Shown: positions 2,503 through 36,103 of the stretch, piece by piece
Numbering within the stretch: position 1 is the first letter of the stretch
How the letters are laid out: each line of letters opens with the position of its first letter
Origin: a virus
Taxonomy: Duplodnaviria; Heunggongvirae; Uroviricota; Caudoviricetes
IMG/VR virus record: IMGVR_UViG_2565956762_000004
DNA length: 39,628 nt
Strand: one strand, 5' to 3'
Program-made: the position numbers and the translations under genes
The notes under the pieces: model-generated
Told to the model about the DNA's origin: nothing
The model's database searches: none
Seen by the model: the letters and a program-made list of their open reading frames with translations, nothing else

Positions 2503-4392
2503 ATGAAATCCGAAACGCTAACCATCCAGCAAATTTTCCAAAATCAACGACAATATCGTGTTCCATTCTATCAACGTGCCTACGTATGGACGCAACGAAA
2601 CCAATGGTCAGCTTTGCTGGAGGATATCTTCGAAAAAGCACAGAGCCGACTTTCGGGAACAAAACCAACCCCTCATTTCCTCGGCGCGGTGGTGCTGGAA
2701 CCTCAACTCAAAAACAGCTTGTTAGGTGTAGATACCATACATATTATTGACGGCCAGCAACGTTTAACCACTCTTCAATATATTCTGGCATCCATTCGAT
2801 TATCATTGCGTGCTACAGGCCTTTCTGAACTGGAAGGGTTAGTATTGACTTGCTTGAAAAATACAAACGAAGCAACGATGAGAAATAAAAAGGTAGAATG
2901 CTTCAAACTGTGGCCAACTTTTCGAGATCAAACTCATTTTATTCAAAGTCTTAATGTTGATAATATTGACGATCTCCGTAATGTATTTTCTGATAGCTTC
3001 ACGCAACATGGTACGTTACGTAAACATTTCAACCACCCGCCGTCACTAGAGGCATTATGGTTTTTTACTGAAGCCTTTATAAAATGGATTAAAATAGAAA
3101 ACCACTCACCACAAGAAAATGCTGTAGCACTAATTGAGGCTGTCTTGACGGATCTGAAACTGGTAAGCATATTTCTCGAAGCTGAAGATGATGCCCAAAT
3201 AATTTTTGAAACATTAAATGGGCGAGGAGCGGAACTTCATGCAACGGATCTTATTCGCAACTATATCTTTATGTGCGCTGAGCATGAAAATATTAATGCT
3301 ATTGAATTATATGAAAATGAGTGGAAGATCTTTGAAGATAAATACTGGTCGGAAAAGCAACGCCGTGGACGTATTAATAAACCACGCATGGAGTGGCTTG
3401 TACATGCGACATTGCAATCAGAAAGGCAGCGTGAAATTGATCTGTCTCGCCTTTACAATGAGTATCGTGATTATGTAAGTAAGGACTTGCCTTCACAACG
3501 AGCAGATCTGCAAGTAAAGCGCCTCAAACAATATGCATCACAATATAAAGAATTGGTTGGTGGTTTTGGCACAACCCCCATCTCACACTTTGGACATCGC
3601 ATCGCAGCCTATGATGTGACGACACTCTATCCGCTTGCTTTGTTCATTTCGATAGCTAACATCGCCGATGATGAGAAAGCAGCCATGTATAATGATCTTG
3701 TCTCCTACGTAGTACGAAGATCCGTATGTGGCCTGACGCCAAAGAATTACAACAATGTATTTATGAATGTATTGCGACACTTGTCTAAAACGGAAATTTC
3801 CAGTGTTGAGTTACGTAATATCCTCAATAGCTTAAATGGCGAAGCCTCACGTTGGCCTGGGGACTCAGAATTTCTCAACGCTTGCATCAATGCTCCACTT
3901 TATCCTGGCAGGCTCGACGCACCGAAAATGCGCTCAATGTTAACGGAACTTGAAAGAGAACTTTGTCGCCAAGTGAAGACAGAAAAGCCTGATGTTCCAA
4001 ATCTTTCTAATCTCGATATCGATCATCTTATGCCTCAAAGTTGGTATTCCTGTTGGCCTCTCGAAAATGGTCATATGGTGACAAATTCAGATGCTACGGT
4101 AATGAACCAAATTGTTCTGTCTGGAACCGATCTTACCCCTGAACAGCTACTGGTAAGGAAACGGCAACAAGCGATAGCTACGTTGGGAAATCTAACTTTG
4201 CTTAACCTTAGCGTAAACCGTTCCGTTCAGAATGCTGTATTTCTGAAAAAACGTGATGCTCTCATCGTCCACACCAATCTACGACTGAACATACCACTTA
4301 TACTTAAGGATAAATGGGATGAGAGTGAAATACTGGAGCGAGGTAAAAAGTTGGGGGAAATTGCATTGAAAGTATGGCCAAAATACGATTAA
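2503..4392 (+). CDS. DUF262/DUF1524 (GmrSD-family) putative type IV modification-dependent restriction endonuclease, 629 aa
   Basis: N-terminal DGQQR motif (IIDGQQRLTTL) typical of DUF262; C-terminal DIDHLMP His-Me finger motif typical of DUF1524. GC below phage average. Confidence 0.7.
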   Translation: MKSETLTIQQIFQNQRQYRVPFYQRAYVWTQRNQWSALLEDIFEKAQSRLSGTKPTPHFLGAVVLEPQLKNSLLGVDTIHIIDGQQRLTTLQYILASIRLSLRATGLSELEGLVLTCLKNTNEATMRNKKVECFKLWPTFRDQTHFIQSLNVDNIDDLRNVFSDSFTQHGTLRKHFNHPPSLEALWFFTEAFIKWIKIENHSPQENAVALIEAVLTDLKLVSIFLEAEDDAQIIFETLNGRGAELHATDLIRNYIFMCAEHENINAIELYENEWKIFEDKYWSEKQRRGRINKPRMEWLVHATLQSERQREIDLSRLYNEYRDYVSKDLPSQRADLQVKRLKQYASQYKELVGGFGTTPISHFGHRIAAYDVTTLYPLALFISIANIADDEKAAMYNDLVSYVVRRSVCGLTPKNYNNVFMNVLRHLSKTEISSVELRNILNSLNGEASRWPGDSEFLNACINAPLYPGRLDAPKMRSMLTELERELCRQVKTEKPDVPNLSNLDIDHLMPQSWYSCWPLENGHMVTNSDATVMNQIVLSGTDLTPEQLLVRKRQQAIATLGNLTLLNLSVNRSVQNAVFLKKRDALIVHTNLRLNIPLILKDKWDESEILERGKKLGEIALKVWPKYD

Positions 4393-32860: not shown

Positions 32861-33535
32861 ATGAAAACAATCCATGACATCCGGCGGTCTAACGCCAGAA
32901 AACTGAGAGATGGTGTTGGCGGGAATTCTTCCTTTGCCACTATGATTGATCGCGAGCCAACCCAGACCAGCAGGTTTATGGGAGATGGTGCTACTAAAAA
33001 TATCGGTGACAACATGGCACGACACATCGAAAAATGTTTCGACCTGCCTGTCGGATGGCTCGATCAAGAACACCAGACAACGAACATCACAAAAAAACCT
33101 GATGTTTCAATCACTAATAAACAAATCACATTAGTCCCTGTCATATCATGGGTACAGGCCGGAGCATGGAAAGAAGTTGGATATTCTGAGGTTGATTTGA
33201 GCACAGCAGAAACGTATCCCTGCCCTGTACCCTGTGGGGAAATGACTTATATCTTGCGGGTGATAGGTGATTCAATGATTGATGAGTACCGCCCGGGAGA
33301 CATGATTTTTGTCGATCCTGAAGTACCTGCCTGCCACGGTGACGACGTTATTGCATTGATGCACGATACAGGTGAAACCACCTTCAAAAGGTTGATAGAA
33401 GATGGGACACAGCGTTATCTCAAAGCGTTAAACCCAAACTGGCCTGAGCCTTACATTAAGATCAACGGTAATTGCTCTATAATTGGAACTGTGATTTTCT
33501 CAGGAAAACCAAGAAGATACAAAATCAAAGCCTAA
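32861..33535 (+). CDS. cI-like repressor (HTH plus S24 LexA-like peptidase domain)
   Basis: N-terminal HTH, C-terminal VIGDSM serine motif and downstream Lys; divergent from cro. Confidence 0.8.
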   Translation: MKTIHDIRRSNARKLRDGVGGNSSFATMIDREPTQTSRFMGDGATKNIGDNMARHIEKCFDLPVGWLDQEHQTTNITKKPDVSITNKQITLVPVISWVQAGAWKEVGYSEVDLSTAETYPCPVPCGEMTYILRVIGDSMIDEYRPGDMIFVDPEVPACHGDDVIALMHDTGETTFKRLIEDGTQRYLKALNPNWPEPYIKINGNCSIIGTVIFSGKPRRYKIKA

Positions 33536-33547
33536 TCAATGTTTATG

Positions 33548-33571
33548 AACCTGCTTCGGCAGGTTTTTTTA
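33548..33571 (+). terminator. intrinsic terminator after cI
   Basis: AACCTGC-TTCG-GCAGGTT stem followed by TTTTTTT. Confidence 0.6.
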
Positions 33572-33574
33572 TAC

Positions 33575-33603
33575 TTGACAATGTACCCTTGAGATACATA
33601 ATG
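33575..33603 (+). promoter_or_regulatory. pL-like early promoter (TTGACA-N17-ATAATG) flanked by ATGTACC operator half-sites
   Basis: Consensus -35, 17-bp spacer, 5/6 -10; ATGTACC occurs at 33581 and 33601. Confidence 0.5.
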
Positions 33604-33691
33604 TACCTAAGAGAAACAACAAACAGGCAGGACGCCCACGAAGTAGCCGCCTGGGGCATATGAAGTCCAGGATGATTCGTTAGCAACAAAA

Positions 33692-33724
33692 AAGCGCCCT
33701 ACAGGACGCTTAGCTCTTTAACAA
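33692..33724 (+). promoter_or_regulatory. nut-like antitermination element: hairpin plus rrn-type boxA GCTCTTTAACAA
   Basis: 12/12 match to the rrn boxA core as I recall it, preceded by AAGCG-N10-CGCTT hairpin, about 110 nt downstream of the pL-like promoter. Confidence 0.4.
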
Positions 33725-33769
33725 TCTGGTCCCCATCAACAAGTAACTGATAACTTGAGGAGGTGTGAA

Positions 33770-33976
33770 ATGCACAAAACAGAACCCAAAATCGTCGCGC
33801 CCGGATACACAAATGAGGAAATTTACGAGTGGATGGCAAAGAAGCTGGCAGCTATAAACCAGCTTCGTGAAGTGCTGTCTTATCGACAGGAAACAATAGA
33901 CTCCTTAAAAAAACTGGATCAGGAAATCACGGTTTTATCACAGGATGTTACTTTAGATATTGTGCAGACAAATTAG
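33770..33976 (+). CDS. small early protein (68 aa) in the N-gene position, not Arg-rich
   Basis: Strong GAGGAGG Shine-Dalgarno before the ATG; no arginine-rich motif. Confidence 0.4.
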   Translation: MHKTEPKIVAPGYTNEEIYEWMAKKLAAINQLREVLSYRQETIDSLKKLDQEITVLSQDVTLDIVQTN

Positions 33977-34382
33977 GATCCCATTCATTTTCGTCAAAAT
34001 CATCAAAGTGATGAATTTGTGATCTCCAGTCTCGATAATCTAAAAATTTCTGGGCGGTTACGCTTATTTTATCAAGTGTGAGTTCATCCTGAATTGAAAG
34101 AAGAAGTTCATCAAATTTCATCTCATTAATCTGTTTTGGCATCCAGTGATGCTTCATCAGAATAAGGTGAACCAGAGCCTTTTTCCCATTCAACTGATTA
34201 TAGGGAGTGCCGAATTTCTTCCGGTGCTCATGTAAGACAAGATCCAGAAGAGTAAGTAATGTTGCCCTTGATTCCACTTTGCTTATTTCGACTGATGACA
34301 CTACCCCACTGATTTCAATGCCCCGATACTTTCCAACATTTTCACAGTGGGATTTGTACAACGTGTAGATATTACCGGACAT
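33948..34382 (-). CDS. reverse-oriented low-GC moron, hypothetical 144-aa protein
   Basis: Complete ORF antisense to the early operon; no motif recognised. Confidence 0.5.
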   Translation of the reverse strand: MSGNIYTLYKSHCENVGKYRGIEISGVVSSVEISKVESRATLLTLLDLVLHEHRKKFGTPYNQLNGKKALVHLILMKHHWMPKQINEMKFDELLLSIQDELTLDKISVTAQKFLDYRDWRSQIHHFDDFDENEWDPNLSAQYLK

Positions 34383-34397
34383 TTCTTTTCCTTTTGC

Positions 34398-34449
34398 GTT
34401 GTTGGGGATAACCAGATTAACCGAATCCTTGTTGTTGGGGAATAACCAG
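34398..34449. repeat. two direct repeats GTTGTTGGGG(A)ATAACCAG, 33 bp apart, upstream of the minus-strand moron
   Basis: Seen directly at 34398-34415 and 34431-34449. Confidence 0.35.
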
Positions 34450-34713
34450 GTCCACCTCGCCTGATGTGGCTAAAAGCAGGCACATAACAGCTAAGTATTT
34501 TCAACCAGAGAGAATCCTTAGCGTTGTGGTGAATGCTGCTCAGCGCACGCGGGTTAAGGTTGAGGCTGACAGTCGACCTTCTGTGGATACCCACCCGCCT
34601 GGTGTGCAACCTTCGCCAGGCACCGGGAGGCACCCGGCACCACAACTTTATGCTGTGTGTAGTCTTGGCGGTACCAGCTTGTACCCTTGCTTCCGGCTGG
34701 TACCGTCCTTTTT

Positions 34714-34802
34714 ACAAAACAGAGAAGAGCATCACCGGACGACGGGCTCATAACTCAATCCATCCGGGCGGCTGCCACCGCAGGTGTTCTTCTCTGTTTT
34801 GT
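34714..34802 (+). other. long imperfect hairpin (17-bp arms ACAAAACAGAGAAGAGCA / TGTTCTTCTCTGTTTTGT, ~53-nt GC-rich loop) within a GC-rich non-coding island
   Basis: Arms are reverse complements with one mismatch; a second 9-bp-stem hairpin lies at 34670-34704. Confidence 0.4.
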
Positions 34803-34850
34803 GGAGAAACTAATCGGCCTTGCAGGGTCGATATGATGAGGAGCAGCAAA

Positions 34851-35213
34851 ATGGCTAGCGAACGCAGTACTGATGTGCAGGCATTTATCGGGGAGCTGGA
34901 CGGCGGCGTATTTGAAACCAAAATCGGCGCAGTTCTCAGTGAAGTCGCTTCCGGTGTGATGAACACGAAAACCAAAGGTAAGGTCTCACTCAACCTGGAA
35001 ATCGAACCATTTGATGAGAACCGAGTGAAAATCAAACACAAACTCTCATATGTTCGCCCGACTAACCGCGGGAAAATTTCTGAAGAAGACACCACCGAAA
35101 CGCCGATGTATGTCAATCGCGGTGGTCGCCTGACTATTCTGCAGGAAGACCAGGGACAATTACTGACTCTTGCCGGTGAACCTGACGGAAAACTCCGCGC
35201 AGCAGGTCATTAA
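34851..35213 (+). CDS. hypothetical early protein, 120 aa (YfdP-like by size and neighbours)
   Basis: GAGGAG 7 nt before ATG 34851; the longer ORF-track N-terminus is Arg/Cys-rich and non-protein-like. Confidence 0.5.
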   Translation: MASERSTDVQAFIGELDGGVFETKIGAVLSEVASGVMNTKTKGKVSLNLEIEPFDENRVKIKHKLSYVRPTNRGKISEEDTTETPMYVNRGGRLTILQEDQGQLLTLAGEPDGKLRAAGH

Positions 35214-35278
35214 TATCGTTCTTAATTAACTGATTATTTATCTCATCACTGAATATCTTTATATAGTGAGGACTTATT

Positions 35279-36103
35279 ATGTCTCAGAACTTAGACGCAA
35301 CCGCAATTAATCAAATCCATGCTATTATTTCTGCTCAGGGTGTTAATGAAATTATCAGTAAGATTGGTGCCGATGCTGTAGCATTGCCTGAGAATTTCCG
35401 CATTCATGATCTGGAAAAATTTAATTTAAATCGCTTCCGTTTCCGTGGTGCGCTTTCCACTGCCAGCATCGATGACTTTACCCGTTATTCTAAAGATCTT
35501 GCAGATGAAGGCACCCGCTGCTTTATCGATGCTGATAATATGCGTGCCGTCAGTGTGCTTAACCTGGGTACTATTGATGAACCAGGTCACGCAGATAACA
35601 CCGCCACTCTCAAACTGAAAAAGACAGCACCGTTCTCTGCACTGTTGTCTGTTAACAGCGAGCGTAACTCCCAGAAGTCACTGGCAGAATGGATTGAAGA
35701 CTGGGCCGACTACCTTGTGGGTTTTGATGCTAATGGTGACGCTATCCAGGCAACAAAAGCGGCTGCGGCTGTCCGTAAAATCACGATTGAAGCAAACCAG
35801 ACCGCTGATTTTGAAGATAATGACTTCAGCGGCAAACGCTCCCTGATGGAGTCTGTCGAAGCGAAGACCAAAGACATTATGCCAGTGGCATTTGAATTTA
35901 AATGCGTTCCGTTTGAAGGTCTGAAAGAACGTTCTTTTAAATTACGCCTCAGCATTATCACTGGCGATCGTCCTGTACTTGTTCTGCGCATTATTCAGCT
36001 GGAGGCGGTGCAGGAAGAAATGGCTAACGAATTTCGCGATCTGCTTGTTGAGAAATTCAAAGACAGCAAAGTAGAAACCTTTATTGGTACTTTCACCGCC
36101 TGA
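35279..36103 (+). CDS. DUF2303-like early protein, 274 aa (YfdQ-like)
   Basis: Size and gene order with the following HD-domain gene match the yfdQ-yfdR pair I recall from a K-12 cryptic prophage. Confidence 0.5.

Follow-up and report, generated by a model that had tools for sequence, protein, structure and literature searches.

What does a gene that runs backwards through the early operon of a lambdoid prophage do there, and how is it accommodated? The question is raised by a 39,628-nucleotide stretch of Caudoviricetes DNA (IMG/VR record IMGVR_UViG_2565956762_000004; the whole stretch is called the window here), in which an open reading frame (ORF) of 144 amino acids (aa) lies on the minus strand, opposed to its neighbors. 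This ORF is very probably a real, pair-forming, moron-type accessory gene. As far as sequence comparison can tell, it forms a conserved two-gene convergent module with a 68-aa gene on the other strand. The repeats and the hairpin around the module frame a reusable slot in the leader of the early-left promoter, PL, and are not private to the 144-aa gene. The module consists of the following features.

33948-34382, minus strand: 144-aa gene of the ECs1072 family (by NF033230, phrog_5286, family conservation and an AlphaFold2 (AF2) model).
33770-33976, plus strand: 68-aa partner gene, the first gene of the PL operon (phrog_1744; acidic, isoelectric point 5.0).
33974-33983, both strands: near-palindrome TAGGATCCCA at the center of the overlap (from the window sequence and an alignment of its relatives).

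The 144-aa ORF begins with ATG behind a Shine-Dalgarno sequence, AAGGAA, at 34388-34393, and its GC content is 38.2% compared with 49.2% across the window. A previous sequence-only reading had described a low-GC ORF of this length on the minus strand, overlapping a small gene by 29 bp and preceded by two repeats, and all of these features are present in the sequence. The same reading had recognized no motif in the protein. This was borne out in Pfam, where neither the 144-aa protein nor any of 45 family members searched gave a match, and in PADLOC-DB v2, where searches with the 144-aa and 68-aa proteins gave 0 families at E up to 1. It was not borne out in NCBIfam: residues 4-144 align to positions 2-142 of the 142-position profile NF033230 (ECs1072 family phage-associated protein) with 157.8 bits against a cut-off of 70. 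The full protein (residues 1-144 of 144) also matches phrog_5286 with an E of 1.5e-90, as do its homologues in ST64B and Klebsiella. NF033230 and phrog_5286 are both uncharacterized families. An exhaustive HMMER search of 1.84e9 representative proteins returned 76 family clusters, nearly all of 140-160 aa, in which W134 is invariant and L50, R54, L64, G66, A69 and H72 are conserved. The protein is hydrophilic (grand average of hydropathy, GRAVY, -0.47), and its AF2 model, built from 45 sequences, has a predicted local distance difference test score (pLDDT) of 94 and a predicted template modeling score (pTM) of 0.88. A profile search of the PDB at E up to 10 gave 0 matches for the family, and a Foldseek search of the model against BFVD gave nothing at E 0.001 or better. 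The remote homology and structure searches that had been proposed for this protein therefore led to a named family and to neither a fold match nor a standard early phage function. Profile searching of genome contigs yielded 3 loci; the broad family alignments were too diverse for locus searches.

Could the ORF be a chance or decaying reading frame without a product? Such a frame would fit the lack of a detected promoter for the window copy and the absence of homologues from the annotation of the ST64B and Klebsiella phage records; the homologues in ST64B, Klebsiella KPP5665-2 and a Serratia prophage are all unannotated. It is hard to reconcile with a full-length family kept down to about 22% identity, a very confident AF2 model and a homologue whose transcript is on record. 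The protein is moreover 100% identical in 80 of the 80 IMG/VR loci returned, and at least 80% of the 1.4-kb region 33500-34900, which includes the gene, is present in 407 of 5,426 complete E. coli genomes. This explanation is extremely improbable and is effectively refuted by conservation.

The second component of the module is the 68-aa gene. It probably begins with the ATG at 33770, which GAGGAGG precedes, and ends with a stop codon at 33974-33976, so that the two genes converge and overlap over 29 bp (33948-33976). A match to the hidden Markov model (HMM) of the partner was found beside the family gene in 167 of 169 loci, which hold 29 distinct family proteins, and the partner converges on the family gene and overlaps its 3' end. 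The two exceptions are a contig end and one locus, L010, discussed below. For a pairing of the toxin-antitoxin or abortive-infection type, this co-occurrence is what the data show. Prophages of Escherichia, Salmonella, Klebsiella and Serratia keep the pair at a protein identity of about 25-30%. Partners found after PL (phrog_1744) and partners found between Q and holin (phrog_3501) align in hhalign with a probability of 86% and an E of 4.8e-6. In relatives (L006-L008, L095-L171), the palindrome at the overlap is TGGGATCCCA, which codes for W-D-P in both convergent genes and contains GATC and GGATCC. The window palindrome reads TGGGATCCTA: TGG of the partner has become the stop codon TAG, and CCC has become CCT, which is synonymous in the 144-aa gene.

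The family gene is counter-oriented to its neighbors at every position in which it has been seen, and the module always lies backwards in a lytic operon of lambdoid phages that is strongly transcribed. It lies after PL in this window and in loci L009 and L011, and between the Q antiterminator and holin genes in ST64B, Klebsiella KPP5665-2 and the Serratia prophage. Sakai ECs1072 itself (now ECs_5703; L296 9117-9852, prophage Sp4), which aligns to the family profile with 97% probability, occupies a third site between a cII-like gene and the O replication gene. Of these three sites, the pair itself is seen in at least two, behind PL and in the Q-holin interval. Sakai ECs1072 is crossed in antisense by a long forward ORF, whose N-terminus carries a partner-like LSDVELAEWL motif; the resemblance of this ORF to the partner is not significant (probability 3%). 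The ST64B module (L007) is flanked by a PR'-like promoter at 3602-3575 (minus strand) just after Q and by a terminator at 2760-2741 (minus strand) that precedes holin.

The position behind PL is shared with other genes. Comparison with related phages delimits two nested segments.

33682-34451, no strand assigned: outer cassette, the segment that differs or is absent in SfV, SfII and mEp460_4F5.
33730-34397, no strand assigned: inner cargo, replaced in PhiR29_1 by a different reverse gene, exactly between the arms described below.

The same flanks enclose other inserts in SfV, SfII, mEp460_4F5, Ayreon and PhiR29_1, and PhiR29_1 retains homology over 33401-33729 and 34398-35000. The label of moron that had been given to the 144-aa gene is supported, the gene being counter-oriented, low in GC and variable in presence between otherwise near-identical phages. 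Altogether, the cargo of the slot came in 12 lengths and at least five unrelated types, with the main ORF reversed in 10 of the 12. Variants without an ECs1072 gene are represented by L172, L204, L233, L249 and L194, and the alternative cargo proteins had no meaningful Pfam or PADLOC matches. The slot cargo comprises the following.

Three diverged pairs of an ECs1072 gene and its partner.
A coiled-coil/zinc-ribbon family of 156-175 aa.
A 150-aa protein whose hydrophobic segments probably span the membrane (weak PADLOC match to '4TM effector', E 0.008).
A 167-aa protein with a 97-aa forward ORF.
A 558-bp insert (L194) with the arms present and no ORF of at least 45 aa.

What marks this slot in the sequence? 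Five elements recur around the cargo.

34398-34415, plus strand: proximal repeat (right arm 1), GTTGTTGGGGATAACCAG, 16 nt upstream of the ATG of the reverse gene.
34431-34449, plus strand: distal repeat (right arm 2), GTTGTTGGGGAATAACCAG, predicted partner of the left arm in the PL transcript of the window.
33723-33743, plus strand: left arm, an inverted third copy, AATCTGGTCCCCATCAACAAG, upstream of the 68-aa gene and abutting boxA.
33713-33724, plus strand: rrn-type boxA, GCTCTTTAACAA, in the PL leader, the only exact match in the window.
33692-33711, both strands: GC-rich hairpin, with a T-run on the minus strand, where it resembles an intrinsic terminator (AAGCGTCCTGTAGGGCGCTT TTTTGTTGCT), and directly before boxA on the plus strand.

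The starts of the two right repeats are 33 bp apart, and a single additional A distinguishes the copies; the proximal one probably lies in the 5' untranslated region of the reverse gene. An exact 10-mer repeated within 60 nt occurred in 126 of 2000 shuffles, so that the repeat alone is mildly unusual. It is judged real because it is conserved and not because of this rarity. Relatives with 72% and 52% protein identity have both repeats upstream of the gene (at 56% the arrangement is degenerate), and the same repeats are kept in phages with a different gene at the slot. The sequence-only reading had seen the two tandem copies, which are there, and had missed the third, inverted one. It had further taken the tandem copies for an operator of the reverse gene, bound by a dimeric or tandem-binding regulator. 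A gene-specific operator is rejected on the finding that the same repeats frame unrelated cargo, standing before unrelated reverse genes in other phages; the third copy is inverted across the cargo, and the arms co-vary by cargo type and are predicted to pair in the PL transcript. Other readings of these elements were set aside. An invertible segment is rejected on the basis of 80 of 80 IMG/VR loci that are collinear with the window over at least 33619-34795 and of E. coli matches in a single piece. DnaA boxes were dropped: TTATCCCCA and ATATCCACA match TTATCCACA at 8 of 9 positions and are not conserved in L011 (by eye). Readings of the repeats as sigma-32, sigma-54 or extended -10 promoters were inspected and none fits.

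The left side of the slot has the layout of an rrn-type antiterminator, in which a hairpin is followed by a boxA consensus in a promoter-proximal leader (33692-33724). GCTCTTTAACAA matches the core of the rrn boxA consensus exactly. It lies about 110 nt past the PL promoter hexamers and is kept as [AC]GCTCTTTAACAA in 12 cargo-length variants, in every one of which the left arm is 0-1 nt away. The hairpin is kept in all slot variants and stands before boxA at the position of boxB in rrn leaders, from which a boxB label may be inferred. The first gene of the operon has no similarity to lambda N, and no N-like protein is evident. This layout suggests an N-independent, Nus-factor-based antitermination in SfV/SfIV-like phages.

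Across the slot, the left arm of each cargo type resembles the reverse complement of the cargo-proximal right arm. Cognate arms pair with a mean of -24.9 kcal/mol and non-cognate arms with -21.5 kcal/mol, and 11 of 20000 permutations do as well. Pairing is stronger in RNA of the PL direction than in the reverse RNA. When whole cassettes (600-790 nt) were folded for minimum free energy (MFE), a right arm was paired with 17-22 of the 23 bases in the left arm in 8 of 8 cargo types tested, and the MFE fold of the window pairs 33724-33743 with 34428-34451. RNAalifold predicts a 14-bp consensus stem that includes five pairs with double changes. The IMG/VR slot search was anchored on the constant right-hand sequence and on boxA. 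The distal arm was consequently fixed by design, and its constancy carries no weight. The repeats acting through an RNA stem is the reading favored here and is about as apt to be right as wrong; it is unproven because covariation is weak and the distal arm was fixed by the search.

Is the reverse gene expressed in lysogens, as had been proposed? For two relatives, transcripts from lysogens are on record. The homologue in ST64B corresponds to STMMW_20121, with exact agreement in the 435-bp length, the distance of 162 bp after holin and the 71-bp overlap with sb50. STMMW_20121 is reported to be transcribed from its own promoter, with its own transcription start site (TSS), in almost all conditions (Owen et al.). 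In 16 of 17 conditions its level is 60-270 transcripts per million (TPM), with 4.9 in late stationary phase and with holin below 40; these levels are comparable to those of BTP1 cI in the same table. From 269 TPM in InSPI2, the transcript falls to 113 under peroxide and 105 under nitric oxide (NO), both of them ST64B-inducing shocks under which the partner region rises. The second relative, ECs1072 in O157 Sakai, decreases at least 4-fold (-2.13) at the transition to stationary phase. The proposal of lysogenic expression, which the absence of any lysogen transcript would have contradicted, is upheld for STMMW_20121 and ECs1072 and lacks a clear promoter in the window copy. A predicted minus-strand intrinsic terminator at 33711-33692 would serve the reverse gene as its own. 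The ST64B reverse gene likewise has its own terminator (L007 3324-3344, plus strand), 45 nt past its stop and inside the partner gene.

How could these elements work together? The best overall explanation is a convergent module that acts in the lysogen from a framed PL slot and whose flanking arms pair in the PL transcript. It is held tentatively, at somewhat less than even confidence. The likeliest targets of the 144-aa protein, which would work in the lysogen, are incoming phages or host physiology. Once PL (or PR') becomes active, convergent transcription and the antisense RNA made by it would reduce expression of the 144-aa gene, and boxA would make PL transcription processive through the antisense segment. 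The partner, made from the lytic transcript, would modulate or neutralize the 144-aa protein, a logic that may be likened to that of lambda and P22 sieB with esc and sas. Most probably, base pairing of the arms within the PL transcript would place the antisense cargo in a loop. This stem could be a processing or insulation element resembling that of an rRNA precursor, with the early RNA (an STnc100-like element, then yfdP onward) continuing beyond it, and the arms could double as the 5' leader of the reverse mRNA. Defense or exclusion is the best guess for the role of the module, by analogy with sieB; as a claim in its own right, an anti-phage function is rather doubtful.

Several results weigh against the lysogen-acting module with a pairing stem. 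Function has been demonstrated for 0 members of the ECs1072 family, and the 144-aa/68-aa pair has no similarity to SieB, N, PADLOC models, or solved or viral predicted folds. The sole clear exception to pairing is L010, where no partner is detectable: its family member (3001-3456, 56% identity) lies in an early-left operon, adjoins an Exonuc_VIII gene (PF06630) and has only degenerate repeats. Cargo of the PhiR29_1 type also comes without a forward partner. The minus strand over 33400-35000 holds no sigma-70-like promoter of 9/12 or better, the best weak candidate reaching 7/12. Because no promoter was found here, lysogenic transcription of the window copy is an extrapolation from relatives of 22-30% identity at other loci. 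The ST64B partner region is also transcribed in lysogens, at 22-257 TPM (Owen et al.). The partner there is hence not strictly lytic-only, and a division into a lysogen gene and a lytic antidote is too simple. As for the stem, covariation between the arms is weak, with an RNAalifold covariation term of about 0 and most pairs invariant, and the flanking inverted repeat is absent from the Q-holin lineages. The similarity of the arms could instead reflect a protein site or a recombination joint.

Each of these possibilities has its own evidence. If the repeats were operators acting as DNA, their dimeric or tandem-binding regulator might be either protein of the pair, and they would control the reverse promoter and, through the third site, the region downstream of PL. 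The three copies of the motif do have the same orientation relative to each convergent gene, their 33-bp spacing is close to three helical turns, a missing consensus promoter fits an activator-dependent one, and co-variation of the copies is equally expected for sites of one protein. However, a cargo protein cannot be the regulator when the motif also surrounds unrelated cargo, and a fixed regulator of host or phage must tolerate arms that differ by cargo type (L194, for example, has TCTGGATGACT on either side). Left-arm substitutions, in addition, keep G.U pairs in RNA of the PL direction and give mismatches in the other direction, which leaves operators unlikely. The arms might otherwise be mainly recombination joints for the exchange of cargo, either conserved flanks or what is left of an insertion bounded by terminal inverted repeats, with no RNA or regulatory role, the tandem duplication being a scar. 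Breakpoints fall at the arms in comparison with PhiR29_1 (33729/33730 and 34397/34398) and just outside them in comparison with SfV (33681/34452). The proximal arm travels with the cargo whereas the distal arm is constant in the loci sampled, and the 558-bp insert of L194 retains arms around no sizeable ORF. The constancy of the distal copy was set by the search design and cannot be counted here either. Against recombination joints, the 80 loci with an identical protein are all collinear with the window and show no sign of inversion, and the slot comes with no recombinase. The arms have also stayed complementary, with a strand asymmetry, as their sequences diverged, and the left arm stays next to boxA in every variant. 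This account is doubtful.

A further alternative concerns the pair and not the arms. The pair could be a regulatory device of the phage itself and not a gene that benefits the host, adjusting, for example, leakage or antitermination of PL, PR or PR' transcription or the moment of induction; transcription and product of the reverse gene would damp the surrounding operon. Interference by convergent transcription is a known device. The pair always comes directly after a major lytic promoter or antitermination point: PL and boxA here, a PR'-like promoter in ST64B and a cII-like gene in Sakai. Owen et al. leave 'accessory or regulatory' open for STMMW_20121. Yet the pair is dispensable for the phage cycle, because SfV, SfII and mEp460 have unrelated inserts instead, and its low GC and mosaic boundaries are typical of morons. 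A device of this kind is improbable. The boldest form of the lysogen-acting module joins two proposals, a new, widely mobile two-component prophage system (a lysogen-active protein with a fold of no known relative, for example an abortive-infection or exclusion effector, disarmed on induction by its partner and by antisense transcription across the W-D-P palindrome) and a generic 'moron socket' in the PL leader of SfV/SfIV-like phages (an rrn-like boxA joined to a long-range stem around interchangeable antisense cargo and processed like an rRNA precursor). That both hold together is quite unlikely.

The surroundings of the module are those of the immunity and early-left region of an SfIV/SfV-like lambdoid prophage. 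Over 33500-34900, many E. coli chromosomes (that of strain 268.2, for example) match the window at 100% identity, and Shigella phage SfIV matches it at 98.8%. Along the plus strand, the order is cI/YmfK, terminator, promoter, leader, 68-aa gene, reverse 144-aa gene, a GC-rich structured region and yfdP/yfdQ/yfdR.

32861-33535, plus strand: cI/YmfK (Peptidase_S24 match).
33547-33566, plus-strand order: predicted intrinsic terminator after cI.
33575-33602, plus strand: PL-type early-left promoter, TTGACA-16-CATAAT, assigned by its position 3' of cI and its terminator.
33580-33618: two operator-like repeats, AATGTACC.., at the PL promoter (repeat scan).

The early operon to which the gene had been described as antisense is the PL operon, and the 144-aa gene lies just downstream of PL. 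The sequence-only reading was correct about the antisense orientation and had missed both the identity of the operon and the order of cI, terminator and promoter.

Downstream of the module, a region between it and yfdP (34493-34716) aligns end to end with the model of the small RNA STnc100/PasD (Rfam RF02076), which it resembles in this respect. Unlike STnc100, the window copy scores 41.9 bits (E 4.8e-7) where the gathering score is 47, and it is a neighbor and not part of the module. STnc100-like elements were located at 34493-34716 (plus) in the window, 2528-2723 (minus) in L008 and 3256-3471 (plus) in L002; in SfV, SfII and ST64B the element is conserved as a leader that precedes yfdP. Klebsiella KPP5665-2 carries a bona fide STnc100 (108 bits) at the same position relative to the module. 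The induction-responsive 'STnc1310' of ST64B, downstream of cI, may be the same RNA. An Rfam scan found no family, C4 and isrK included, at gathering score in the window. The 'immunity region' of SfV orf37 (L002, minus strand) holds a C4 antisense RNA (82 bits, 431-518) and isrK (64 bits, 543-619). Between the STnc100-like element and the start of yfdP lies a 25-nt inverted repeat (34714-34738/34778-34802), 84% complementary with a 39-nt loop. A similarity of the downstream RNA to HK022 put was considered; in a blastn search with 34452-34850, HK022 was not among the best 60 of 65 phage records matched.

What is new in this locus, and why does it matter? The ECs1072 family and the lysogenic expression of its ST64B member are already on record, only as 'unknown'. 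In the literature searched, there is no account of the partner, the W-D-P palindrome at the overlap, the multiple operon positions, the missing fold relative or the boxA-linked slot. Counter-oriented morons by immunity regions have repeatedly proved to be defense or virulence genes, as with rex, sieB, bstA and HK97 gp15. The wide spread of the family, the repressor-like transcript levels of its relatives in lysogens and its lack of both a functional annotation and a recognizable fold make it a well-defined candidate for a new prophage-encoded function, and the near-obligate small partner offers an immediate experimental handle. At least five types of cargo behind PL suggest a reusable architecture for backward genes in an antiterminated operon. 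If this is true, the slot would allow genes to be carried backwards in the main early operon of a phage with no disruption of that operon. If the stem is real, rrn-style leader logic extends to the insulation of phage accessory genes.

How does the module compare with known systems? The closest in layout is lambda sieB, which is also counter-oriented and convergent with the first PL gene (N at 35037-35438, minus strand; sieB at 34482-35036, plus strand). SieB is membrane-associated and expressed in the lysogen, and cleavage of the PL transcript yields the sas RNA. The 144-aa protein is hydrophilic and unlike SieB (hhalign probability 0.2%). The antagonist of sieB arises from an internal start, whereas the candidate antagonist in the window is a separate convergent gene. 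In P22, the sas antisense RNA switches which sieB-encoded peptide is translated (PMC7067206). BstA of prophage BTP1, one of the repressor-adjacent defense genes with self-immunity, is comparable as an accessory gene near the immunity region that is transcribed in the lysogen, and in the idea of sparing the phage's own lytic cycle. It differs in that bstA is co-directional with cI and its self-immunity element is a DNA site and not a partner protein; the 144-aa protein has neither homology to BstA nor a PADLOC match. STMMW_20121 was flagged in the same transcriptomic screen as bstA (Owen et al.). The morons of HK97 and HK022, which are inserted between phage genes and have their own promoter and terminator, share with the window gene a variable presence, an atypical GC content and a terminator (predicted here), and a homologue has its own TSS. 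They are unlike the window in its two-gene convergent pair, its reusable flanks and its copy without a found promoter. The leader itself is best compared with that of rrn operons, in which the long-range 16S processing stem, a substrate of RNase III, comes after boxB, boxA and boxC. The resemblance is one of sequence and prediction, set in a phage PL leader in which the looped RNA is antisense to a protein gene. It includes the hairpin, a boxA of 12-nt identity and a 5' arm predicted to pair with a 3' arm 650-700 nt downstream.

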